Shown: piece after piece, positions 3,334 through 16,362 of the stretch
How the letters are laid out: each line of letters opens with the position of its first letter
Numbering within the stretch: the first letter of the stretch is position 1
Assembly: GCA_044229975.1 (NCBI GenBank)
Contig: JBGARZ010000022.1
Location: forward strand, 32,001 to 96,000
Source: Polyangiales bacterium
GTDB lineage: Bacteria > Myxococcota_A > Polyangia > Polyangiales > Ga0077539
Direction: 5' to 3'
DNA length: 64,000 nucleotides
Notes under the pieces: generated by a model
The model's input: the letters and a program-made list of their open reading frames with translations, nothing else
What the model was told of the DNA's origin: nothing
Databases searched by the model: none
Made by a program: the position numbers and the translations under genes

Positions 3334-3417
3334 CGGCAAGTACCTCACTGGGGCCGATGGTAGGCACGCCTCGCCAACGCGCGAAACCTACGAGCGCGCG
3401 ATGGTGACGGGTGGGAT

Positions 3418-3572
3418 CTACGCCGCGGCGTCCACGCGGGGCACACCGGTCGGGCCCGCAGTGCGCGGGTCCTACGCCGCGGCGTAGGGCAAGCGCAGTG
3501 GTCGGGTTCCTCCTCACCGGGCCTACGCCGCGGCGTCAGCGCGGCGCGCGCCGGTCGGGCCCGCAGTGCGCG
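3418..3572. repeat. 2-3 degenerate copies of the ACGCCGCGGCGT-containing ~53-bp repeat
   Basis: tacgccgcggcgtcagcgcggcgcgccggtcgggcccgcagt matches the repeat unit at 11541-12340. Confidence 0.85.
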
Positions 3573-3621
3573 AGGCCACACTGCCAGTCCCGCTCGCACG
3601 AAGCGGCCCTACGTTGGGCTC

Positions 3622-3954
3622 ATGAGCAGCGAAACCAACGCGGTGACCTGGAAGGACGGCTCCCGGTGGAGCACGGGGGCGGGCGTATTCCGACGACTGA
3701 CCGGACGGCTCGACGGGCTGCGCGACACGGTGGTGGGCTTGGGGCCGGTGCTCGATCGGTGGAAGGCACGGGGCGCGGGGGCCGTCGACGTGGACGACTT
3801 CGCGCCGACGGAGGACGACCGCGCAGTGCTGACCGCGGCGCTGGCGCGGGTGGTCGAGGACGACGACGGGGACGCGAGCGAGGAGGGGAGGGCGGTGGGC
3901 ACCGAGGCGCGGGCGCTGCACGAGTTGTTCATGACGGATGTGACGAAGGGGTAG
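3622..3954 (+). CDS. hypothetical protein
   Basis: 110-aa ORF with ATG start and host-like codon usage. Confidence 0.6.
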   Translation: MSSETNAVTWKDGSRWSTGAGVFRRLTGRLDGLRDTVVGLGPVLDRWKARGAGAVDVDDFAPTEDDRAVLTAALARVVEDDDGDASEEGRAVGTEARALHELFMTDVTKG

Positions 3955-3995
3955 CGGCGGAGGCGGGGGCAGTCGGCACCAGCGGCTTGTTGGGC
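3948..3995 (-). other. truncated attC-like site (R''/L'' half only)
   Basis: gtcggcaccagcggcttGTTGGGC matches the conserved arm of the 91-bp sites; the other arm is missing. Confidence 0.7.
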
Positions 3996-4041
3996 GGGGC
4001 TCCACTCTGTCCCGAAGGCATCCTCAAAACCGAGGCGTTCG

Positions 4042-4479
4042 TCAGCCTGCAACGTCGGGTTCGGGAGAATCCACCACGAGATCCGGATGAAGAGTGTGCG
4101 TTTCCCAGAAGTAGGGGTGTTCCCGAAGGACCGGCGTTGGCTTGATGGTCCGCTGTGCGGGGCGCATGCGACTCTTGAATCGCTCGTCGATGGGTGTGAC
4201 AGCTGCGCGAAGGCGCGCTGCTGTCTCGGCGCTTGCATGCTCGATGGAGAGTTGAATCCATACGCGGCAGCCAATCTCGTGGTTGTACTCGGATGGGTCC
4301 CAGTTCGACCAGTCGGTGTCCACGAACTGAGCCCACTGGGAGAAGTGGTCATGGAGTGTCGCTCCAACGTATGCGTCTACAAGAGTCGGGTGCTCGCCCC
4401 AGCGCTGAATCGCCACTCGAATTGCGGCCAGGTCGGTCAGGGTAATCGACACGTCGAACTCTGGTTCTCGTACTTGCAC
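4042..4479 (-). CDS. cassette-encoded hypothetical protein (145 aa)
   Basis: GTG at 4479 preceded by GAGG; stop lies 46 bp before the half attC. Confidence 0.7.
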   Translation of the reverse strand: MQVREPEFDVSITLTDLAAIRVAIQRWGEHPTLVDAYVGATLHDHFSQWAQFVDTDWSNWDPSEYNHEIGCRVWIQLSIEHASAETAARLRAAVTPIDERFKSRMRPAQRTIKPTPVLREHPYFWETHTLHPDLVVDSPEPDVAG

Positions 4480-4494
4480 CGTTGCCTCGATTTT

Positions 4495-4585
4495 GCCTGA
4501 TGGCTGGCCGCCGCGCCGCCGCAGCGGACGCGACGGGGTAGTGGCGGGTGAAGCGACCGCGGTCGGCACCATCGGCTTGTTGGGC
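4495..4585 (-). other. attC-like site with degenerate R' core
   Basis: Minus strand GCCCAACAAGCCGATGGTGCCGACCGC...ATCAGGC (R' no longer starts with GTT); 91 bp. Confidence 0.8.
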
Positions 4586-4597
4586 AGGGCGCGCATC

Positions 4598-5116
4598 TCA
4601 AGTCTCGGCGACCGCTGGGAGAGCATTGAAGTCCCTGATCGACGACTCGACCAGATTCGCCAGAGCGATCCATTCACCTGGGACAATCGCACCGTGCCAC
4701 GACAATCGCGATCTCGCTTGCCCTACAAATGCAGCCACCTCGTAGCGCACTCCGTCGCAGGCTTCTGCCGGTATTCGTTGTGTTCGTATGGGGACCAAAA
4801 GACCGTCAATCGATCCCACCAACTTCTCGACGATCTCCGGGTCGATCATCACCCGAGAAAATCCAAAAACGAAGTCGTCCTCGGGCTCTGCGGAAAGAGA
4901 ACGGTACAGCCGCAGTACATCCTCTCTGTAGATTTCATAGCATACGGTAGGTTCGAACGAGGGTCTATATACAAGTTGAAGCAGGCGTTCGCCCGAGCCA
5001 GGAAAGCACCACCATTCGTCGTGGATATGCCTCGGCGTGGTCGTCGCGATCCGCTTCTCGCTCTCGAACTCCGCGAGGCGCCTCTCAAGTTTTCGCTGCG
5101 CCTTAGTACTCGGCAT
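4598..5116 (-). CDS. cassette-encoded hypothetical protein (172 aa)
   Basis: ORF fills the interval between two attC sites; stop 12 bp before R''. Confidence 0.75.
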   Translation of the reverse strand: MPSTKAQRKLERRLAEFESEKRIATTTPRHIHDEWWCFPGSGERLLQLVYRPSFEPTVCYEIYREDVLRLYRSLSAEPEDDFVFGFSRVMIDPEIVEKLVGSIDGLLVPIRTQRIPAEACDGVRYEVAAFVGQARSRLSWHGAIVPGEWIALANLVESSIRDFNALPAVAET

Positions 5117-5195
5117 CGCTACTCTCCCAATCTACTGCCGTCCCGCAGGCAGAGCGATCTCATGGGACGCCTACAATCGGCGGCGACGAGGCTCC

Positions 5196-5286
5196 GCCCA
5201 ACGGCAGGCCTCTGTGCCGCCGCAGCGGGCACGGCTGGTTGGCAGAGGGTGAATGGGGAGCGGTCGGCACCATCGGCTTGTTGGGC
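5196..5286 (-). other. attC-like site
   Basis: Minus strand GCCCAAC...GTTGGGC; 91 bp; L' arm slightly mismatched. Confidence 0.88.
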
Positions 5287-5306
5287 TCACCGCTCTTTGG
5301 TAGGCT
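5278..5306 (+). promoter_or_regulatory. putative sigma70 promoter of the TA cassette
   Basis: TTGTTG-17 bp-TAGGCT with TGn extended -10; ATG follows 7 nt after the -10 box. Confidence 0.45.
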
Positions 5307-5313
5307 CCCCGAC

Positions 5314-5508
5314 ATGACTGCCAGGAAGATCGAAAACCGCCTCCCCGACGACCACCCCGCCTTGTTGGCTGCACGGCGTGCCCCGATCGAGTCCGAAACG
5401 GATGAGGAACGTGAGGTGGTCGAGGCTGCGATGAACTCGGGACAACTCGTGCCTGGGTCGATCGTGACGGCGGAACTCGCGCGGCGCGCACGTCGGCCCC
5501 ATGGCTGA
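5314..5508 (+). CDS. putative antitoxin (64 aa)
   Basis: Small ORF with an acidic stretch (ESETDEERE), overlapping the downstream RelE-like ORF by 8 bp. Confidence 0.6.
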   Translation: MTARKIENRLPDDHPALLAARRAPIESETDEEREVVEAAMNSGQLVPGSIVTAELARRARRPHG

Positions 5509-5746
5509 TTTGGAGATTCTCTGGACCCCCGCTGCGATCTGGGCGCTCCGCAGCTTTCACTGGCGTGAGGGCGAAGTCATTGACGCCGCTGTGCAGAAGT
5601 TTGCTCGGACGGGCGAGGGGCATGTGACTCGAATTGACGGGTCGCTGAGCCGGATGCGCCTCTACGTGCCGCCATTCACCGTGCGGTTCAGCCTGGACCA
5701 AGACAAGGGCGTACTCGTGGTCGCTTGGGTGTGGCGACAAGACTGA
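5501..5746 (+). CDS. RelE/ParE-superfamily toxin-like protein (81 aa)
   Basis: EILWTPAAIWAL...IDAAVQKFARTGEGHVTRIDG...RL.V...TVRF...LVV pattern resembles the RelE fold. Confidence 0.7.
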   Translation: MADLEILWTPAAIWALRSFHWREGEVIDAAVQKFARTGEGHVTRIDGSLSRMRLYVPPFTVRFSLDQDKGVLVVAWVWRQD

Positions 5747-5903
5747 CGAGCAGGCTGTCGATGCCCTGGCCTCGCCGCTCGGTGCTTGGTTTGTCGTCAT
5801 CCCGCTGCCCTCGTTGATCGCAGCCCGCTGTCCGCAGTCGACTGCCTGTTGCTCGTTGACCGCGACTCGCAGCTTGCTCTTCCACAGCCCGTCGCTCGTC
5901 GCT

Positions 5904-5994
5904 GCCCAACGGCCTGCCGATGTGCCGCCGCAACGGGTGCAGCGGGTTGGTGGTGGGTGAAGCGGGAGCGGTCGGCACCATCGGCTTGTTAGAT
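5904..5994 (-). other. attC-like site
   Basis: Minus strand ATCTAAC...GTTGGGC; 91 bp. Confidence 0.92.
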
Positions 5995-6153
5995 GTGCCG
6001 GATATCGCTCGCCGCTCACCCGTTTGCCGGAACCCGTTACTCGTCGTCTCGTCTGTCGCCTCGGCCGTTGTCACGCCACTGCTCTCACTGGCCGATGCAT
6101 GGAGTCTTTGGGAGAGATTGCTGATTGCAGGCCGGAGAGGTGACACAGCATGG

Positions 6154-6429
6154 CTACACTCGATACTCCAGCCCAAGGAGATTCATCGCCTCTTTCAATG
6201 CGATCGGTCTAGCGGCCTTCGTCTGCTCATCAACGAAGAGAAAGTTACTTGTACCAAGCGGCATATACGCCATGTCGCGATCCACCGTCCAACGAGCGTC
6301 AGCGTATGGAGCGACCCAACCGCCCTCTACCTTGGTGTAGTCCTCCTTCCGCGTCGCGAGCCTGTCATCGATATAGTCCACTCGGCCCAGAGCTTCTTCA
6401 GCAAGTCGATACGCCTCGTCTACATCCAT
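6154..6429 (-). CDS. cassette-encoded YrhB/Imm35-like protein (91 aa)
   Basis: ATG at 6429 with GAGGT RBS; GGWVAPY...LGTSNFLFVDEQT resembles the YrhB motif GW.F.Y...LAGN.P..VD..TG. Confidence 0.5.
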   Translation of the reverse strand: MDVDEAYRLAEEALGRVDYIDDRLATRKEDYTKVEGGWVAPYADARWTVDRDMAYMPLGTSNFLFVDEQTKAARPIALKEAMNLLGLEYRV

Positions 6430-6719
6430 CACGGCACCTCGTCCCTTGACTCCCTCACAAGCCCCACGACCGCTCTTCACACACCGCGTGAGGCGTATTT
6501 CTTCCTCGCCTTTTCCAAATAGATGCACCAGACGTCACCGCCGGCCGCCTGCTCGCTGGGGTCTTTCGTCGTTCGTCGTCTGGACCGTTGTCACGCCGCT
6601 TTCCTCATTGACCGATGCTCGCGGTCGCCACTCGTTGTCCGTTGCCCACAGCCCATTGCTCGTTGGCCGTGGCCCAATCGTTGCCTTTTCGCCGCCCGTA
6701 GCTCGCTGCCCTGTGCTCT

Positions 6720-6810
6720 ATCTAACGACTGGCCGATGTGCCGCCGCAGCAGACGCGGCGGGGTGGTAGTGGGTGAGGTGGCGGCGGTCGGCACCATCGG
6801 CTTGTTGGAC
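6720..6810 (-). other. attC-like site
   Basis: Minus strand GTCCAAC...GTTAGAT; 91 bp. Confidence 0.92.
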
Positions 6811-6845
6811 ATCTCGGCAGACGCGGGGTGTATGTTTGCAGCCAG

Positions 6846-8573
6846 CTATTCCGCAGACCACCTCGGGACAAACGACGTTGCCGGGACAGTCATCAGCTTC
6901 ATCAACTCCTTGCCGTTCGGCCACCCCGGAATCATTGTCGCAACGGTGCTCGCTGCGAGGCTTTCAGCATTTACACTGGCGACCGCCTTCAGCCAGTTCA
7001 TTGGACTGAACAACTTTCCGCTTGGTTGTGTATTGATCGCATTCTGAAGAGCATTGTCCAAGCAGCTGGCAGCCAGCGTCAGGATCTCGGTCGGCTGCTG
7101 AGCCGCCTTCAACGTCGCGGCGGGCTCCACAACGAGTTGCTGCTTGTTGGCTCTGGCAATAATAGCCGACACAACAAACAGCACATGATACTTAGCATAG
7201 CCCTTTCCTGCCTTTATCGTATCGTCGAACGTAAAATTGGACCACAGATCCTCAATGGCGTTCAGCCACGTCTGGAGGGCAAGCATTGACGCCGGATTGT
7301 AGCCAGTACGAAAGAGAGTTTTGTAGTGATCATCAAACAATCGTTTCTCGTTATACGAAATATTCGGCCTCTGGCAGTGCCAGGCCATTAGCATTTTTCC
7401 GAGTATGGCTGTGTCGATGGTCTTTGCCGCATCTCTATTGGCAGGTCGTTCTTCTCCTCTCTTGGTGAGGAGATAGCCGTCCGGGTATTGAATCTCATAC
7501 GCTCTCTTCAGTCCCACCAAGACCTTGTCGTTGCTCTTAAGATCTCGTGGCTTTACCTGAGTCTGCGAGTTCGTGTTGATGCTGATTCGATCCCCAAGCG
7601 CTCGGTCAGGAATCTCGTAAAGCCGAAAGAGAATTCGCGCATCGGAGGCTTCCGACGAGCGCACTCGCTCCGAGACCGAAAAGATCGTTGAAAGCGACTG
7701 GCATCCGTTCACGACGCTCAGTCCCTTGATGTTCATGGTTTTCCCGTCGTCGCTTATGGCGACGGAATCACATAGTGCGGTAACGCCATTGTGGTAGAAG
7801 AAAAATTCCCTCACTCGATCGCCATTGTTGATGGTGTCTTTGAGTGCCCTGTTTACCTTGTTCATTCCGAGCGACTGACGGACGTTCTTGCGAAAAAGAC
7901 GCCCGTCCTTGATCCCAGGCAGCCGTAGACATTCCTTCAAAGGCAAGACGGCTAGTACCGTCTGGGCAGAGCCTAGCTTTGTGACCAATGTGCTAGCAGG
8001 ATCAACGATCATCGCATGGTCCAATGACGGAAGTTCCTGCGCTTCAGCCTCGGCGAGCCGCAGCTTGAGAACATCTGTGTCGATGAGATGGAGCCCTGCT
8101 TCGAAGTCGTCAGATTTTTCCAGATTTTCCGCAAAGGCTTTCAAGTCTCCCCGCGCAGCGTCGGTCAATGCGCCCGTCGTGATCAACTCGAAGTCCACTC
8201 GGTAGTCGTCCTCCAGAGCTCGTCGAACCGCTTCGAGTTTCACTTTGAGTTTGTCGTTGGCATCCTTTTGCAAGGACGGAAGGTCTTGAAGTCGCATCCA
8301 CGCGCCTAGCACTTCACGAAGCGGCTCCCCATCGACGGGGCTCCCGTCGATGAATTTGCCTTGAATAACGATCACTCTACGCTCTTCGTCCTCAACGATG
8401 ATGGCGTCGATCTGCTTGTCATTGGCGCCGTCGGTGATGTCGTCCCGCGTTGCGACCGCATCACGAAGCAGTACCCTTCGCAGATGCCAGGCAACAAAAC
8501 GCTGGCCATCGTTGGCGAAATTCTGCTGATAGTAACTACCGTCCGTGATCTCACGCTTGATCTGATCGATCAT
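6846..8573 (-). CDS. AIPR family protein (abortive infection phage resistance) with N-terminal PD-(D/E)xK-like domain
   Basis: LFRKNVRQSLG, FFFYHNGVT, VVNGCQS, NTNSQTQVKPRDLKSND; N-terminal DGANDKQIDAI...IQGKF; GGAGG RBS; AT-richer than flanks. Confidence 0.92.
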   Translation of the reverse strand: MIDQIKREITDGSYYQQNFANDGQRFVAWHLRRVLLRDAVATRDDITDGANDKQIDAIIVEDEERRVIVIQGKFIDGSPVDGEPLREVLGAWMRLQDLPSLQKDANDKLKVKLEAVRRALEDDYRVDFELITTGALTDAARGDLKAFAENLEKSDDFEAGLHLIDTDVLKLRLAEAEAQELPSLDHAMIVDPASTLVTKLGSAQTVLAVLPLKECLRLPGIKDGRLFRKNVRQSLGMNKVNRALKDTINNGDRVREFFFYHNGVTALCDSVAISDDGKTMNIKGLSVVNGCQSLSTIFSVSERVRSSEASDARILFRLYEIPDRALGDRISINTNSQTQVKPRDLKSNDKVLVGLKRAYEIQYPDGYLLTKRGEERPANRDAAKTIDTAILGKMLMAWHCQRPNISYNEKRLFDDHYKTLFRTGYNPASMLALQTWLNAIEDLWSNFTFDDTIKAGKGYAKYHVLFVVSAIIARANKQQLVVEPAATLKAAQQPTEILTLAASCLDNALQNAINTQPSGKLFSPMNWLKAVASVNAESLAASTVATMIPGWPNGKELMKLMTVPATSFVPRWSAE

Positions 8574-8731
8574 ATTTTTTCCTCCGGTGTGCTTGCGAGA
8601 GTGTCAGAGCCGACTGCCGTTGTTCAAGAGTCTTCGTGTCGCCTGCGTCGTAATCACCACATTGATCGCTTTTCTTCGCTCGTGACCCGCCGTTTGCCAC
8701 CTCACAGCCGGCCGCCCGCTGCTCTGTGGCT

Positions 8732-8822
8732 GTCCAACGGCTGGCCGATGTGCCGCCGCAGCGGGTGTAACGGGTTGGCATTGGGCGAGTTGGCGGCGGT
8801 CGGCACCATCGGCTTGTTGGGC
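8732..8822 (-). other. attC-like site
   Basis: Minus strand GCCCAACAAGCCGATGGTGCCGACCGC...GCGGCGGCACATCGGCCAGCCGTTGGAC; 91 bp. Confidence 0.92.
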
Positions 8823-8870
8823 GGTCTTGCCACAGAGTCCTGATCTCCAGATCGACGAAGCCGCGCAGTA

Positions 8871-9653
8871 TCACTTAGTCCCGAGTGCTCGATCCCACAA
8901 CAAGACTTGTGTTTGAATGGCTCCGGAGTCACCACCAGACAGCATGTCAAATTCTTCATTTGACATCGCGGCGATTTTTTCTCTAATAAGCTGATCTTCA
9001 GAAAGCAATCGCCGGTTCTGAATTGCTGAATTTGATCTTGCAAAGCCCAGCATACAGCGGACAACTCCATCAGCGAGCGTTTTCCGATCCGCGGATCGCA
9101 ACCAAGCGATCAGGCGGTTCAGATCGGCTAACGAATCAGACGTCGGACGCATGCCCGATAAAAGAAAAAGACCTTCGTAATGATACCACAACACGTCATC
9201 AAAAGAGCAGGACGGCCGTTGCCAATCTTGATACCGCACGGAACACAGCTCTTCGTAGAAGAGCCGAGAAGCCTCGAGTCGTTGCGCAACCCGATCAGCC
9301 GAACAGGGCGCCGTGTGAGCAGTTACCACGCTGATGGTGCCGTAGGCCGTGTCCAATGAGTACTTATCGAACTCGTGGCCGAACGGACGCCGATCCACGT
9401 CCTTTCGTACGGACTGAATCGCCGCCTTCATCTCTCCCCAGAGATACGCTCGCCACTTCGGACCGTCCCAACTGAAGTCGCTCGTCGCGTCGATCACAAC
9501 GATCTGATCGGCCGCAACCGGTTGGACAGGGATCTGGGGGAATTGCCCTGACTTCTTGTACGCTCGCGCCCATCGCATGCCCTCGCGCCGCACCGCCTGC
9601 CGAACAGCAGGAGCGGTTCCATAGAGGAAATCTGGAATTTCCAAGCACTTCAT
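8871..9653 (-). CDS. cassette-encoded hypothetical protein (260 aa)
   Basis: ATG with GAGGA RBS; stop 48 bp before attC; AT-richer codons. Confidence 0.8.
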   Translation of the reverse strand: MKCLEIPDFLYGTAPAVRQAVRREGMRWARAYKKSGQFPQIPVQPVAADQIVVIDATSDFSWDGPKWRAYLWGEMKAAIQSVRKDVDRRPFGHEFDKYSLDTAYGTISVVTAHTAPCSADRVAQRLEASRLFYEELCSVRYQDWQRPSCSFDDVLWYHYEGLFLLSGMRPTSDSLADLNRLIAWLRSADRKTLADGVVRCMLGFARSNSAIQNRRLLSEDQLIREKIAAMSNEEFDMLSGGDSGAIQTQVLLWDRALGTK

Positions 9654-9719
9654 CGCGTCCTCTCTTGGCTAGAATACCGCATCGATGAGCGGGTCAGCGA
9701 GTTCATCGGGGGGCGTCAC

Positions 9720-9763
9720 GCCCAACTCTGTCCGCCCAACATCTCATTCACCCGCCGCCCAAC
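9720..9763 (-). other. candidate array entry point (attI-like); three GTTGGGC cores
   Basis: GCCCAAC on + strand at 9720, 9734 and 9757; complementary to R'' of the first attC. Confidence 0.45.
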
Positions 9764-9777
9764 CTCACTCTTCTGCT

Positions 9778-9960
9778 GTTCGCCCGCCGCCGTCACTGCC
9801 GAACCCCATTTCGTCCGTTGTTCGCCCGCCGCCGTCACTGCCGAATCCCCATTCGTCCGTGGTTCGCCCGCTGCCGTCACTGCCGAACCCCGTTCGTCCG
9901 TTGTTCGCCCGCCGCCGTCACTGCCGAACCCCATTCTCCCGTTGTTCGCCCGCCGCTGTC
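9778..9960. repeat. 41-42-bp tandem repeat, about 4.4 copies
   Basis: gttcgcccgccgccgtcactgccgaaccccattcgtccgtt starting at 9778, 9820, 9862, 9903 and 9944 (partial). Confidence 0.9.
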
Positions 9961-10516
9961 CACCCCTCCGCGCCCGCGCCGCCCTTCTGCTCGCCCATGC
10001 CCGCGGCGCCCGCGCCGCTCCGATCGAATCTGCCCATCGACGCCAACCCGCGGATCCCGCCATCGGCCGCGTCGAAGTCCACCGCCCCCACGCGCCTCGT
10101 GTGCCAACACGGCTTCCCCATATCGCGTCCCTCTGCCGCCGTCGCGACCTGCACAGCAACAACCCTCCACAAGGCGCCCCACGATGTTGCTGCGCCCGGA
10201 GGCAGCGATCGTCGCTCCATCTGTCGCCGCGTCGTCACCGATGACCCCAATGAACCCCGAACGACCCTCCGCACCATCCAGGAGCCGCCAGGCCACGAGG
10301 ACCGCCGCACCACGATGATCGCCCCTCCACCATGTTGTCGACCGCAGCTCGCCAGGCGTGGCGAGCCCGCTCGACCGCCGGTCGCCCTTCACTCCCCTTC
10401 AATCCTCAGTTGATCGTTGGAACCGCTCCCACAGCAGTGTGCGGGAGCGCGTCGTTTCCGGGGCATCCGGCCATGCGGGAGCCGCATCCCTCTTCGGTCA
10501 GCGGTGCGCCTCTGCG

Positions 10517-11323
10517 CTATGCCGTCCCCTTCTTGTCGTCCGTCCCTTCGGTCTTCCCCTTCGCCTTCGCCTTCTTCTTCCCGACCGCCCTCCCGGGCCG
10601 CCGGAACCGCCGCGCCTCCGCCGCGTCCTCCCGCAGCGCGAAGCGCCCTGCGGTGCACAGCCGCGCCGCGATCGCATCGACCTGCGTCCAGGCCGCGTTG
10701 CGCAGTCGTGTGTGCAGCTTGTTCGCTTCGGCGTCCGGCGCTGACACCTTCGGCAACGCCGCCGCCGCCTTCGTCATCCGCTTCCGCGCTGCGCCCAGCT
10801 TCGAGAAGCGCACCAACGACGCCTTGTTCTCCTCGCAGAACGCCTCAAGCGCCCGCACATCATCGTGCAGGTCGGCGAGCCCGTCGCCGCGCAACACCTC
10901 ACGGCACCACGCGCGCTTCCTGGCGTCCTTGCGAAACGCGAAGCGAATGACCGCCACGACATCGCCTTCCGCCGCGCGCGCTTCGTCGTAGAGCGTCTTC
11001 TGCTTGGGCGTGAGGTTCGACGTGCCCACCTGCCGCCGCGTGTGCTCGTCCTGAAGCGTGGTCAGCAGCGCCAGCGCCCCCGAAAACCGCCCGATCTCGC
11101 CCTCGGTCAGATCGTCGTCGGGGTCCATCGGCGTCGCCAGCAGGGCAGCCTTGTGGGGCCCGACCGCGGCCTCCAGCGCCTGCGCCCACGTGATGTACGC
11201 CGGAACATCCCGATTGGGCCGCTTGATCTCCCCTGCGGGAACAGCCTCCAACTCCGACCGCAGCGCCGCCCCGACATCCCGGGGCACGCGGCTCCCACCC
11301 GTCTTCGTCTTCCGCTCCGCCAT
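10517..11323 (-). CDS. hypothetical helical protein with Lys-rich tail (268 aa)
   Basis: ATG at 11323 with GGAGG RBS; the upstream extension in the ORF track is repeat DNA. Confidence 0.75.
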   Translation of the reverse strand: MAERKTKTGGSRVPRDVGAALRSELEAVPAGEIKRPNRDVPAYITWAQALEAAVGPHKAALLATPMDPDDDLTEGEIGRFSGALALLTTLQDEHTRRQVGTSNLTPKQKTLYDEARAAEGDVVAVIRFAFRKDARKRAWCREVLRGDGLADLHDDVRALEAFCEENKASLVRFSKLGAARKRMTKAAAALPKVSAPDAEANKLHTRLRNAAWTQVDAIAARLCTAGRFALREDAAEARRFRRPGRAVGKKKAKAKGKTEGTDDKKGTA

Positions 11324-11386: not shown

Positions 11387-11519
11387 GGTGAGCGGGTCGA
11401 CCAGTGTGGTGAGCGGGTCGACCGGTGTGGTGAGCGGGTCGACCAGTGTGGTGAGCGGGTCGACCAGTGTGGTGAGCGGGTCGACCAGTGTGGTGAGCGG
11501 GTCGACCAGTGTGGTGAGC
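11387..11519. repeat. 21-bp tandem repeat, about 6.3 copies
   Basis: ggtgagcgggtcgaccagtgt, near-identical units. Confidence 0.95.
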
Positions 11520-11540: not shown

Positions 11541-12340
11541 CGCGCACCGATCAGGCCCGCAGTCACGGGGGCCCACGCCGCGGCGTCAGCGCGGCGCGCA
11601 CCGGTCCGGCCCGCAGTCACCGGGGCTACGCCGCGGCGTCAGCGCGGCGCGCATTGGTCAGGCCCGCAGCCACCGGGGCCACGCCGCGGCGTCAGCGCGG
11701 CGCGCATTGGTCAGGCCCGCAGTCACCGGGGCTACGCCGCGGCGTCAGCGCGGCGCGCACCGGTCAGGCCCCAGTCGCCTGCCGTCCGTTGATCGATGTT
11801 GGTCCGGACTGTGACTGCAGGCCCGACCGTTGCGCGCCGCGCTGACGCCGCGGCGTGGGCCCCGGTGACTGCGGGCCTGACCGTTGCGCGCCGCGCTGAC
11901 GCTGCGGCGTAGCCCCGGTGGCTGCAGGCCCGACCGTTGCGCGCCGCGCTGACGCCGCGGCGTAGCCCCGGTGACTGCGGGCCCGACCGGTGCACGCCGC
12001 GCTGACGCTGCGGCGTGGCCCCCGTGACTGCGGGCCTGACCGGTGCGCGCCGCGCTGACGCCGCGGCGTGGGTCCGCCGACTGCGGGCCTGACCGTTGCG
12101 CGCCGCGCTAACGCTGCGGCGTAGGGCCGGTGACTGCGGACGTGAGCGTTGCGCGCCGCGCTGACGCCGCGGCGTGGGCCCCCGTGACTGCGGGCCTGAC
12201 CGGTGCGCGCCGCGCTGACGCCGCGGCGTGGGCCCCCGTGACTGCGGGCCTGACCGTTGCGCGCCGCGCTGACGCCGCGGCGTGGGTCCGCCGACTGCGG
12301 GCCTGACCGGTGCGCGCCGCACCGACCCCGCGGCGTGGGT
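11541..12340. repeat. 53-54-bp palindromic repeat in two opposed tandem arrays (about 4 + 10 copies)
   Basis: Unit gtgactgcgggcctgaccggtgcgcgccgcgctgACGCCGCGGCGTgggcccc; orientation flips at about 11778-11810. Confidence 0.95.
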
Positions 12341-12350
12341 CCGCCGCCGC

Positions 12351-13709
12351 TCAGTACCCGTCGATCACGCTGAGCGCCTCGTCGTGGGCCGAGTTCACCG
12401 CGGCCTGCGGGGCGGCGGAGGTCGCGCCCGAGGTCGGCGACGTCATCGCGGGCAGCGCGCGGCGCATCGAGCTCACCCGCCCGATCTGCTCCCGGTACGC
12501 GCGGCTGTTTCGCGTCGAGGCGTCGCTGCGCGCCCGGTCGAGCAGCGCGTCGAGCTGCCGCTCGGCGGCGGCGACGTTGCCGCTGCGGGCCTCGCGGATG
12601 GCGGCCACGGTGCCGACGGCGAGCTGCACCTGCGCGGCCACTGCCTCGACCTCCGCGCTACGACCGCCCTCGATCTCCGCCGCATCGCTGCTCGCGTGGG
12701 CCCCCAGAAACACATCCCGCTCGTAGCGCTCGGAGGGGGCGGCCGGGTCGTTCCAGGCGAGGCGGGCGTCGACGAGCTCGATGGGCGAGCCCGCGCGGTG
12801 CGCCGGAACGTTGAGCCTCACGATGAGGTCCCGCGTCGCCCCTTCGGTGATCTCGCCGAGCTGCACGGTGATGCCCGCGTCGGTGCGCGCGGCGTCGTGT
12901 CCGAGCACCGCCTCGATCTGCACATCGGGCCCGGGGCTCAGCGTCACCACGGCGTTGCGGGCGATGACGCGCTCCATGCGCAGCACCTCGGTGCGAAACG
13001 CCGTCGCCACCGCCGAGGAGTCTTCGACGTAGTGGAAGTGTCCGCCCGAGCGCTGCGCGATCGCGCCCATGAGGGTCTCGTTGTATTCGAGCCCGAGGCC
13101 GAGGGACGTGATGGTGATCTGGTGGGCCCCGGCGCTCGCCGCCATCGCCTCGATGCTCGCCGCGTCCGTGTTGGGAACCCCATCCCCCAACAGCACCACG
13201 CGGTTGATGCCGCCGGTGTTGAGGTGCGCGGCGACCTGCTCGATGCCGAGGCGCAGGCCGTTGGCCATGTCGGTGGTTCCGCGGGCGCGCATCGCGCTGA
13301 TGCGCTGGCGGGCCGCGGCGCGCTCGCTCGCGTCGAGGACGGCGGAGGGGAAGATGACCTCGGCGCGCGAGTCGAAGGTGACGACGGCGAGGCGGTCGCC
13401 GTCGCGCATGGCGTCGACGAGCGCGAGGCTGGCGGCGCGGGCGTCGTCGATGGGCCGACCCTCCATGGAGCCCGACGTATCGATGACGAGGCCGACGTTG
13501 ATGGGCGGTCGGATGGTCGGGTCGACGGCGGCGGTCGCGAGGCGTAGCCGCGCAACGAGCGTGCTGCGCGCCCCGGCGGGGACGAAGCGGTTGCCGAGGG
13601 CGCCGTCGAGGGAGAGGGCTTGCGGGGTTCGTGCGTGGCGCTGGGCGCCGGCGCAGGCCGCGAGGGAGGAGAACAGGGCGAAGACGAAGAGCAGCAATGG
13701 GCGTCGCAT
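12351..13709 (-). CDS. vWA-domain lipoprotein (YfbK-like)
   Basis: Lipobox LAAC; MIDAS motif DTSGSM; GTT and LLGDG motifs. Confidence 0.88.
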   Translation of the reverse strand: MRRPLLLFVFALFSSLAACAGAQRHARTPQALSLDGALGNRFVPAGARSTLVARLRLATAAVDPTIRPPINVGLVIDTSGSMEGRPIDDARAASLALVDAMRDGDRLAVVTFDSRAEVIFPSAVLDASERAAARQRISAMRARGTTDMANGLRLGIEQVAAHLNTGGINRVVLLGDGVPNTDAASIEAMAASAGAHQITITSLGLGLEYNETLMGAIAQRSGGHFHYVEDSSAVATAFRTEVLRMERVIARNAVVTLSPGPDVQIEAVLGHDAARTDAGITVQLGEITEGATRDLIVRLNVPAHRAGSPIELVDARLAWNDPAAPSERYERDVFLGAHASSDAAEIEGGRSAEVEAVAAQVQLAVGTVAAIREARSGNVAAAERQLDALLDRARSDASTRNSRAYREQIGRVSSMRRALPAMTSPTSGATSAAPQAAVNSAHDEALSVIDGY

Positions 13710-13806
13710 GGTGGGAACCTCTGACGCGCAGAACGCACCAGAGGTCTCCGGGCTTACGCTGGTCGTTGCGAAGGGTGGAGGGGGAGGAGGGGTGAAGGAG
13801 GGACGA

Positions 13807-16362
13807 TCAGCGCGGCGTGAGGCGGTACGCCCGGCCCGTCACGACCGCGTCGGCCGTGTTGTACGAGACCTGCGTGCCGTACTCGCTCGTGAGGCTCTCG
13901 GCGCCGATGGTCGCGCTGTTGCCCGAGGCGCGTTCGTCGCCCGCGGTGATCGAGCAGTAGTGCAGCTCGATGACGTTGGTGCCCTCGAACAGCTTGGCCT
14001 GGAAGGTCAGCCGGATGAGGCCATCGCCGTCGGTGAAGTTCGTCCACTGCGTGACGAAGCGGCGCGCGGGCGCGGTGCCGAGGGTGATCGTTCGCGCGGT
14101 GGCGATCTGGTTGTCGTCGTCGTCGACGGTGCGGAGGTCGTCCCAGAAGGGAGCCACGAAGCCGTCGGGCTCCTCGTCGCTGTCGGGGATGGCGTAGTTG
14201 ACGTACTCCGTGCTCGTCGACCCCCCGGTGGCCGCGTAGAGCTGGAGGAAGCCGTTGGACGCCATCGACCAGCGCGTCGCCGCGTCGCCGAAGAACGTCA
14301 GCGTGAAGGGCAGCGCCGCAATGTCGCTGGAGTTGTCATCGCCCCAGTCGCCGCCCGCCGCGCGGGTCACGGCCGTGCCCGTCGTGACGTCGTCGCAGGC
14401 CGCCGTGATGGTCGTGACGGTGTAGCCGGGCAGGAGCACCGGCGCGCCGACCTCCAGGTCGAAGGTTCCGCTCGCGGCGGCGCTACCCGCGACGGACACG
14501 AGGTAGTCCTGCGCCATGGCGCCGCCGTTGGTGAGCGTCACCGTGGCGGCGCCGCCCGACGCGGCCGCCGTGTTGTTGGCGACGCAGCTCGTCGAGGTGC
14601 ACGAGGACAACACGCGCAGCGTCGGCGTCCACGCCATCATCGCGCCCGCGGGAACCGCGCGCACCGGCACCCGGCTCCCCGACGGAACGGTCACGCGATA
14701 GAAGAGCTGTCCTCCATTGGCGGCCGAGACGCACGGGGTGGTCGTGCGGAGACCGTTGCGGGCGTCCTGCGCGCTCAGGGTCATGCCAGCCGTCACCGCC
14801 ACGGGCGTCGCGCAGAACTGACCCGCGACGATGGGCGCGGTCGTCGCGGAGAGGTCCCACGATCCCTCCGTCGTCGCGGAGGTCGACGACAGGCTCACGA
14901 CCACCGTGATGGCCGCGGTGCCCGCGTTCGGGATGTCGAGGATGGCGGGGGCGGGCGTGCCGCTCGTGCCCCCGATGGTGCTGTCGATGCACGTGGTGGA
15001 TGAGCACTCGTCGCGCAGCCGCAGCACGGGCTGACGGGGCGTCGTTCCCACCGGGGTGGCGGTGACGCGCGCGCGCTGCCCGGCCGGAATCGTCAGGCTG
15101 TAGAAGCGCTGACCGCCCACGTCACCCGTGCGGCAGGGCGCGGCCGTGAAGGGAGCGCCCGCGTTGGACTGCCCGGTGAGGGGAGTGCCGGGGACGAGCG
15201 CGACGGCGTCTTCGCAGGCCTGACCGGCGGAGAGCGCGGCGGTGTTGACGACGAGGTCGAAGGAGGTCGAGGTGTCCGCGGAGGCCATCTGCGCCACGGA
15301 GACGATGAAGGTTCGCGGAGAGGTCGTGGCGTTGGCGAAGGGCTGCGAGAGCGTCGACGACGACGACGACGCGAACTGGACGCAGGACGTGGCGTCGCAG
15401 CCGGCGTAGACGCGCACGGCGTAGCCCCAGCTCCCGGATGCTCGCGTGACGAGCGCGGTGCCCACGGTGTTGGCCGGGAGCGTGACCGTGTAGAAGAGCT
15501 GGCCCCCCGGCTCGACGCCCGGCGTGCACAGGCCCGGACCGCCCGCGTTGGCGAAGGTCTGGCCCGTGAGCGCGGTGCCCACGGTGAGGGCGCGCGCCGT
15601 CGCGCAGGTGGCGTTGTCCGCGGGCGTGAAGGTGCTCGCGGTGAGGGCGTAGGTGCCGAACTGGCCGTTGTAGCCGTCGACGACGACGGAGTAGGTGCCG
15701 GGGTCGAGGACGGCGCGCATCACCGACGAGTTGGTGCGACCGGAGCCGGTGCCCGAGTCGTCGTCGCACGACAGCTCCGTCGTCGCGTCGTTGCAGACGC
15801 GGCGGATGGAGAGCTCGGTGTCGAAGCTCGTCCCGGCGTTGTCGAGGGAGAGGATCACCCCGGTGCGCGCGGTGACCACCAGGTTGTAGAAGGCCTCGCC
15901 GCCGCTGGTGTTGCTCTGGCAGCGCGTGCTCGGGACGATGCCGCCGGTCGCGATGGTCGTGCCCATGAGCGCGATGGGGGTCGCCGACGGGAGGGTGATG
16001 GTGTCGCGCGGCGCCGGGCACATCACGCCGCCATCCACCAGAACATCCACCGCCGGCACATCGGCGACATCCGTCGTGGGCACGTCAACCACGATCGCGT
16101 CGGCGAGGCCGCCGTCCTTGTCGGCCGCATCGATGGGCGTTCCCACGTCGAGCGCGGCGTCCATCGGGGTTCCGCCGTCGGCCGGGACGTCGGTGGGCGT
16201 CCCGACGTCGAAGCCGAGATCGGTCGGCGTGGCGTTGTCCGTCGGGAAGCCTGCGTCGGCGCTGCCGTCGTCGGGCGTCACGACGGGATCGTCCCCGCAG
16301 CCGACGGCCGCGACGGACAGGGCGCAGAGCGCCAGGGAGAGGCGCCATGGAGTCGAGTTCAT
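13807..16362 (-). CDS. large Cys/Thr-rich surface lipoprotein with PPC-like repeats
   Basis: ATG at 16362 with GGAG RBS; lipobox AVGC; FDTELSIRRVC...CDDD...LDPGTYSVVVDGY; C-terminal VAPFWDDL domain. Confidence 0.78.
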   Translation of the reverse strand: MNSTPWRLSLALCALSVAAVGCGDDPVVTPDDGSADAGFPTDNATPTDLGFDVGTPTDVPADGGTPMDAALDVGTPIDAADKDGGLADAIVVDVPTTDVADVPAVDVLVDGGVMCPAPRDTITLPSATPIALMGTTIATGGIVPSTRCQSNTSGGEAFYNLVVTARTGVILSLDNAGTSFDTELSIRRVCNDATTELSCDDDSGTGSGRTNSSVMRAVLDPGTYSVVVDGYNGQFGTYALTASTFTPADNATCATARALTVGTALTGQTFANAGGPGLCTPGVEPGGQLFYTVTLPANTVGTALVTRASGSWGYAVRVYAGCDATSCVQFASSSSSTLSQPFANATTSPRTFIVSVAQMASADTSTSFDLVVNTAALSAGQACEDAVALVPGTPLTGQSNAGAPFTAAPCRTGDVGGQRFYSLTIPAGQRARVTATPVGTTPRQPVLRLRDECSSTTCIDSTIGGTSGTPAPAILDIPNAGTAAITVVVSLSSTSATTEGSWDLSATTAPIVAGQFCATPVAVTAGMTLSAQDARNGLRTTTPCVSAANGGQLFYRVTVPSGSRVPVRAVPAGAMMAWTPTLRVLSSCTSTSCVANNTAAASGGAATVTLTNGGAMAQDYLVSVAGSAAASGTFDLEVGAPVLLPGYTVTTITAACDDVTTGTAVTRAAGGDWGDDNSSDIAALPFTLTFFGDAATRWSMASNGFLQLYAATGGSTSTEYVNYAIPDSDEEPDGFVAPFWDDLRTVDDDDNQIATARTITLGTAPARRFVTQWTNFTDGDGLIRLTFQAKLFEGTNVIELHYCSITAGDERASGNSATIGAESLTSEYGTQVSYNTADAVVTGRAYRLTPR

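Follow-up and report, generated by a model that had tools for sequence, protein, structure and literature searches.

The 64,000-nucleotide stretch of the Polyangiales bacterium contig JBGARZ010000022.1 analysed here (the window) contains an array of gene cassettes that we interpret as an integron satellite, comprising an attI-like site, six cassettes and a decayed half of the gene for an integron integrase (intI), and probably refilled in trans by a single integrase. That the array consists of real gene cassettes is virtually certain. By definition it is an attC cluster that lacks an integron integrase (CALIN), with a minimum of two attC sites and no functional intI nearby, and in our reading it is one that works like an integron without an enzyme of its own.

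The attI-like head of the array, its 41-bp tandem units and the intI remnant were found just past position 9763, outside the range of an initial annotation that had described the cassettes (coordinates in Table 1). The crossover is predicted to fall between 9740 and 9739, and the first cassette closes at this head with 4 of 4 bases. The 15-nt core of the head is identical to the sites beside intact intI genes in two relatives (G021 and G014). A profile of intI-adjacent sites (7 other loci and the one on contig C4) matched it with E 1.6, which is weak alone, and model R3, with the window in its training set, with E 3.2e-7. By homology to intI-adjacent sites, the head is an attI of putative activity. 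A second GTTRRRY box is likely to be an accessory IntI binding site, by analogy with the direct repeats of attI1, and the candidate cassette promoter (Pc) is the only promoter match in 9600-10700, where shuffles led to an expectation of 0.0. The locus is not a complete integron, since an intact intI beside the array is replaced by a frameshifted 3' half, which is divergent from the array and about 60% identical to intact genes in the alignment (tblastn E 2e-7; genome-wide nhmmer E 5.6e-24).

Among nine genomic matches to TIGR02249, a single gene exceeded the cut-off (414.8 versus 265 bits). This intact intI is located on contig C4, divergent from an array, and its product is homologous along its length to the solved IntI4 (E 5.6e-79). 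Nine attI-like heads at unlinked loci have one attC family in common, and eight of them are without intact intI. The arrays are small, about ten per genome, and the 42 matches to the left arm of the attC family fall in ten stretches; a 20-nt version of the arm gave 39 matches compared to 0 for the reversed control, and family model R2 gave 41, one of which was marginal (C31). When a profile was built on eight intI-adjacent sites, of which just one was from this genome, it gave 8 matches at E<=5 across 10 Mb, and every one was at an array head (C4, C19, C14, C2 with two heads of which one was matched twice, C23 and the window), while C20 and C39 were missed. Model R3, trained on a set that includes C4, C20 and the window, placed eight heads in the top ranks; the ninth, a degenerate head on C39, was identified by blastn. 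No head was detected for two arrays, on C8 and at the start of C23 (a contig end). Behind the heads in the window and on C20 there are intI remnants, both beginning near nt 480, and nhmmer searches of the whole genome found none behind the other six integrase-less heads. The array contigs are 67-570 kb in size with host-like GC contents, which speaks against mis-binning; with the genome 93% complete, a second intI could be missing. A generic attC regular expression run over the genome was noisy and no second attC family was reliably found.

The left arm was present in 17 of 24 genomes of the same family, whereas none of the 16 genomes that belong to other families had it. The exact two-arm pattern occurred in 64 stretches, in records nearly all labelled Polyangiales, Myxococcales/Myxococcaceae or Deltaproteobacteria. 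The initial proposal of a lineage-specific attC family in a myxobacterial host is thereby supported; with a looser pattern, 301 genomes of the phylum yielded 2 single sites outside the family. Of the 24 same-family genomes, 9 yielded IntI homologues and 18 yielded heads, with a weak head match in one of four outgroups. After merging secondary matches per locus and leaving out six weak loci (E 0.002-0.046), 52 head loci remained in 17 relatives, of which 9 had a full-length intI (two of these broken), 16 a fragment (of which 5 were close to a contig end), 24 no intI within at least 1 kb, and 3 too little sequence. A family attC followed within 6 kb downstream at 42 of the 52. The intI fragments cover different parts of the gene, indicating that deletions recur. 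For 34 of 56 heads (4.2 expected), the nearest relative was another head of that genome, and the flanks beyond intI differ between genomes. Paralogous heads moreover share intI deletions, as in C61 and C19 of G020 (81% identity over 626 nt, with about 63 nt of intI left) and in C122 and C148 of G011 (81% over 388 nt). Taken together, the same-genome neighbours, differing flanks and shared deletions indicate that the platforms were very probably amplified within genomes, sometimes after the loss of intI.

Cassettes that integrate as circles are expected to have first bases complementary to the R'' box of their own attC, and such perfect closure was observed for all 5 GTT-led cassettes of the window. 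Genome-wide, closure was perfect for 27 of 35 cassettes, excluding those >2.5 kb or without GTT, with a mean of 3.77 of 4 compared to 2.91±0.10 for shuffled starts (0 of 20000 shuffles) and 2.97 within linear sites. For first cassettes at heads with a fragment or no intI in the relatives, closure was perfect in 14 of 24 (mean 3.42 versus 2.45±0.13, 0 of 20000), and the core ATG^TT was intact in 21 of 23 intI-less heads. Arrays of this genome hold cassettes in common with 91-99% identity. At G020:C61, the first cassette shows 98.5% identity over 401 nt with one from another genus (G002:C5), whereas the two G020 heads with the shared deletion have diverged to 81%, from which it follows that this cassette arrived after intI was lost.

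These data are consistent with a scheme in which entire platforms, consisting of attI, intI and some short flanking DNA, would be copied to new chromosomal places, as a guess either by ordinary duplication or by IntI use of a secondary site near a conserved outer boundary. The intI gene would then be deleted piecemeal, at times before a further round of copying, with the attI core retained. Cassettes excised as circles would recombine through the bottom strand of attC with attI at G^TT, the C4 integrase inserting and shuffling cassettes in trans at integrase-less heads. In the window, new cassettes would enter at 9740/9739 and push older ones away to decay.

Several other features of the heads were observed. 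In 4 of 4 places (L026:7729-9814 on C19 and the end of L031 on C2 in this genome, L165 and L285 in G001), the first cassette is an element composed of a tyrosine recombinase and an IS91-family transposase that begins precisely at G^TT, being 100% identical at two intI-less heads of this genome and at two of G001. The far end of the element forms a near-perfect inverted repeat with AAC and GTT as its borders and without extrahelical bases, and the element may target attI by itself. A conserved, array-facing TTGAC motif is located about 330-400 nt upstream of the heads in L026, L025 and L031, and likewise in the 3' flanks of intI in L103, L104, L110 and L111; it marks the approximate limit of similarity between paralogous platforms and may represent either the -35 box of a promoter or a recombination junction. 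At G002:C5 (L067), a transposase-like insertion of about 1.3 kb (~13440-14740) parts the attI region from an intact intI, and a second insertion splits the cassette common to G020. No conserved mobilising gene was identified behind the heads, the 268-aa gene next to the window head being absent behind the others. A short head pattern was rejected for the relatives since its matches were as frequent in controls, as was rnpB as a fixed locus: the intI flanks of G002 and G004 are interrelated, yet the match in this genome is on a contig without an array.

The classical origin of CALINs is the loss of intI from complete integrons, and according to this explanation the arrays would be frozen relics, decaying and unused, with heads homologous by descent. 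It would account for the intI remnants, which lie behind 2 of the 8 heads without integrase in this genome and behind 16 of the 52 in the relatives, the truncated or degenerate distal attC sites and the slightly poorer closure at dead heads, and intI pseudogenes are common in the sections of PMC2426708 consulted. We nevertheless consider it unlikely, because heads with one common intI deletion hold different cassettes at different loci, because a near-identical cross-genus cassette comes first at one such head, and because the 15-nt core has stayed the same as in other genera next to a remnant that has diverged.

A still less probable explanation is that homologous recombination or gene conversion between attC sites and heads, together with self-insertion of the IS91-type element, has shaped the satellites without IntI. 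The family attC sites have a mean identity of 85%, the heads C2b, C20 and C23b are 88-94% identical over 125-151 nt, the IS91-type element encodes its own recombinase, and this element followed by the same cassette may occur at two heads, all of which would suit such a process. Exchange within attC loops would, however, not favour complementarity of a cassette start to its own end over that within linear sites, and the first cassette in G020 matches the other genus from its first bases onward. Ordinary palindromes of the repetitive extragenic palindromic (REP) type at gene ends can almost be dismissed. True REP-like arrays with 53-bp units do occur nearby in the window, but the sites considered here show both the R and L boxes and the two unpaired bases, one array is divergent from an intact intI, and the cassettes close. 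REP behaviour of the genome-wide copies, which the initial annotation had named as evidence that would overturn it, was not observed; the copies are strictly clustered on one strand in low-GC arrays.

Some observations speak against refilling in trans. Perfect closure points to IntI-type insertion and gives no date, and the frequencies of perfect closure at fragment (5/10), intI-less (9/14) and intact heads (4/5) fit slow decay. No direct sign of recent use of the window head was seen, and its six cassettes have no second copy in the genome or in the compared arrays of relatives. The nearest relative of the window head is in G001 rather than in this genome, so the window platform may have come from outside. 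The dated case is one cassette in draft metagenome bins, and the IS91-type element may self-insert with its own tyrosine recombinase. In the multi-head genomes G001 and G020 (94% and 96% complete), no intact intI was found with a single query, and the trans-acting enzyme is thus unseen there.

The initial annotation had listed five 91-bp attC sites and a half-site, all of which are present at exactly the positions it gave. Pairwise identities among the five are 68-76 of 91 positions, and each is preceded on the minus strand by one gene or gene pair, as had been described. The two extrahelical bases were also confirmed, at positions 16 and 23 of the top strand, counting from R''. Across 48 aligned family sites, 95.1% of 1104 stem cells were paired (97% in the L stem), compared to 19-49% in all slid controls; related sites are not independent, so shuffle counts are not probabilities. 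The bottom strand was at least as stable as the top strand in 5 of 5 window sites, with a margin of just 0.2 kcal/mol at 4495. The boxes and unpaired bases support the attC identity, and closure lends indirect support to the putative recombination of the bottom strand by IntI. The consensus RYYYAAC...GTTRRRY, attributed to all five, holds for four; the site at 4495 has ATC instead of GTT, which is not an assembly error since a public contig is identical over 4440-4590, and is likely to be non-recombinogenic. Genome-wide, 37 of 42 left-arm matches conform to the R'' and R' consensus. The L' arms at 4495 and 5196 are degenerate, and attC integrity in the window declines with distance from the head.

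The right-hand pattern had been written incorrectly in one respect, in that 8 nt separate GGCACATC from GTT. Of 114 complete family sites, 113 have an L'-R' spacer of this length (146 left-arm matches examined in the genome and relatives), and the unpaired R-L spacers of the family are 5 and 8 nt, those of class 1 and Vibrio cholerae repeat (VCR) sites being 5-6 nt. Spacers of up to 10 nt are permitted in a description of attC sites consulted in part (PMC7370490). The 8-nt spacer was rejected as a novelty, since among the matches listed for one generic motif (L300-L424), the spacer of 128 distinct environmental attC-like sites is two-peaked, at 6 nt (n=67) and 8 nt (n=51). The first extrahelical base of the bottom strand is C, not the G that is called absolutely conserved in a passage of Bouvier et al. 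(PMC2727003); environmental sites with C were recovered by pattern too, suggesting an attC variant rather than a non-attC sequence.

Table 1. Features of the cassette array and its head in the window. Bit scores are from family model R2 and are circular for its own training sites. ORF, open reading frame.
Feature	Position	Strand	Description
attC 6, truncated	3946..3995	-	Left arm and part of loop; fused into end of ORF 3622-3954 (by comparison with G002, G003, G004)
Cassette 6	3946..4500	-	ORF 4042-4452 (~136 aa); no family found
attC 5	4495..4585	-	No GTT; 75.9 bits; sequence confirmed by public contig
Cassette 5	4501..5201	-	172-aa ORF 4598-5116; no family found
attC 4	5196..5286	-	Degenerate L' arm; 93.4 bits
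Cassette 4	5202..5909	-	Overlapping ORF pair 5314-5508, 5501-5746, on opposite strand
attC 3	5904..5994	-	Intact; 99.8 bits
Cassette 3	5910..6725	-	124-aa ORF 6154-6528; weak Imm35 match, below cut-off (E 0.0057)
attC 2	6720..6810	-	Intact; 97.3 bits
Cassette 2	6726..8737	-	575-aa AIPR protein 6846-8573; Pfam AIPR E 5.1e-32; PADLOC AbiU E 2.7e-36; GC 0.54
attC 1	8732..8822	-	Intact; 102.8 bits (member of training set)
Cassette 1	8738..9739	-	260-aa ORF 8871-9653; no family found; GC 0.56
attI-like simple site	9734..9752	-	7-nt L-like box, 5-nt spacer GAGAT, G^TT core
Second GTTRRRY box	9757..9763	-	23 nt upstream of core; from sequence
41-bp tandem unit, 4.4 copies	9777..9960	-	Amplified form of upstream attI unit; three units matched by R3
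Sigma70-like promoter match	9933..9962	-	TGGACA-18-GAGAAT; faces cassettes; candidate Pc
Decayed intI 3' half	9971..10377	+	Model nt 480-944; frameshifts and internal deletions; 5' half absent
268-aa hypothetical gene	10517..11323	-	Within inserted island; not linked to heads elsewhere

All six cassettes are on the minus strand, reading downward from 9739, in a region with a GC content of 50-65% flanked by DNA of 71-73%; the two head-proximal cassettes have the lowest values. The AIPR/AbiU-like protein of cassette 2 is likely to be anti-phage, as judged from its sequence matches. The ORF pair in cassette 4 is likely to encode an antitoxin and a RelE/ParE-like toxin, its atlas match to a ParE cluster (0.93, 179 of 256 features) ranking under three unnamed clusters and no match to Pfam being found. 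Family searches for cassettes 1, 5 and 6 gave no match. Non-coding stretches preceding attC sites (5760-5900 and 6540-6720) are rich in short AACG-containing repeats and resemble those in cassettes of relatives.

The array is part of an island of about 8.4 kb that was inserted at this locus, given that the flanks lie close together in four congeners. In G002, G003 and G004, a gap of 2-3 nt separates the end of the homolog of ORF 3622-3954 from the stop of the gene at 12351, and the distance between the outer flanks in G001 is about 0.5 kb; the fifth congener searched, G005, was too fragmented and its flanks were not joined. The truncated last attC provides the final codons and stop of the chromosomal ORF. 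Two public runs of one study contain small shares of this DNA, with no RNA run listed as containing it, and the low-depth pieces match cassettes 3-6 and the intI remnant; none spans cassettes 1-2 and no head joint was seen. The surroundings are repeat-rich, with head-to-head arrays of the 53-bp REP-like unit at the right end of the island (11541-11776 and 11811-12338, 4.5 and 9.9 copies) and scattered copies near the left end (3413-3584), a 21-bp unit in 6.3 copies (11387-11519) that lies upstream of the 268-aa gene and shares its reading frame, and an inverted repeat of 93 nt, 97% complementary, between convergent genes (990-1226). About 18 kb of other DNA separates the homologs of window positions 3334 and 3621 in G002 (L161, G002:C41:79856-98235), indicating that insertions enter this neighbourhood time and again.

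For most integrons no attI is known, and how CALINs arise and are used is not settled in the field. The family studied here yields an attI consensus, and most of its integrase-less arrays start with that site. If the satellites are used in trans, the host has several first positions for expressing new cassettes at the cost of one integrase, and arrays regarded as degraded would need to be read anew; the cassettes here include a likely anti-phage gene. More tentatively, and with some doubt on our part, the whole may be a distributed integron, in which attI platforms stripped of intI multiply like miniature elements and serve as parallel landing pads for one integrase. Each platform would then have its own promoter-proximal first position, and many CALINs elsewhere would be active satellites whose attI was never sought. 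That one integrase probably serves all the heads suggests that many orphan cassette clusters may still work as insertion sites and may not be relics.

A sedentary chromosomal integron of the VCR or Xanthomonas campestris repeat (XCR) type, as first suggested for this array, is not supported, since there is no working intI here, the island is absent from four congeners and the genome holds about ten small arrays in place of a single large array at a fixed position. The resemblance to the Vibrio VCR and Xanthomonas ilvD integrons lies in the uniform lineage-specific attC family, the divergent intI and the toxin-antitoxin-like and defence-like cassettes; the fixed locus is missing, with intI flanks that vary between genomes and an empty site in G001-G004. 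In Xanthomonas, according to the portion available to us, intI stays at ilvD and CALINs are at conserved loci (10.1101/2025.06.18.660453).

CALINs, broken or multiple intI genes and the mobilisation of CALIN cassettes in trans have been described or proposed, as far as the accessible parts of these sources go (PMC4889954; PMC9024848; PMC8352920; 10.1101/2022.02.06.479319; PMC8876359; PMC3607928). Amplified attI-bearing satellites or this attC family were not described in the literature within reach, which mostly excluded subscription papers, and bioRxiv supplements may list them; the family attC arm was not found in five supplements of PMC8352920. The surveyed CALINs are similar in having at least two attC sites, about six cassettes and no functional intI nearby, and the excerpts consulted frame them as degraded or as cassette donors, list intI loss as one of four origins and suggest functional links to a distant integrase (PMC4889954; Neron et al. 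2022, PMC9024848). According to the same excerpts, attI outside classes 1-3, to which the search of the standard tool is limited, was not searchable, and intI pseudogenes were near only 15 of 279 CALINs. The satellites described here differ in that they keep an attI homolog, often have remnants and have heads amplified within genomes. Several intI per genome, many of them broken and some arising by intragenomic duplication, are likewise reported in the sections seen of Nemergut et al. 2008 (PMC2426708), where integrase genes were counted and attI sites or arrays with intI wholly gone were not followed. Finally, in the portion read of the study of attG insertion and single attC sites lacking integron-integrases (SALINs; Loot et al., 10.1101/2022.09.11.507474), IntI also places cassettes in trans away from the integrase locus; the attG sites are unrelated genomic sequences, whereas the insertion points here are native attI homologs.

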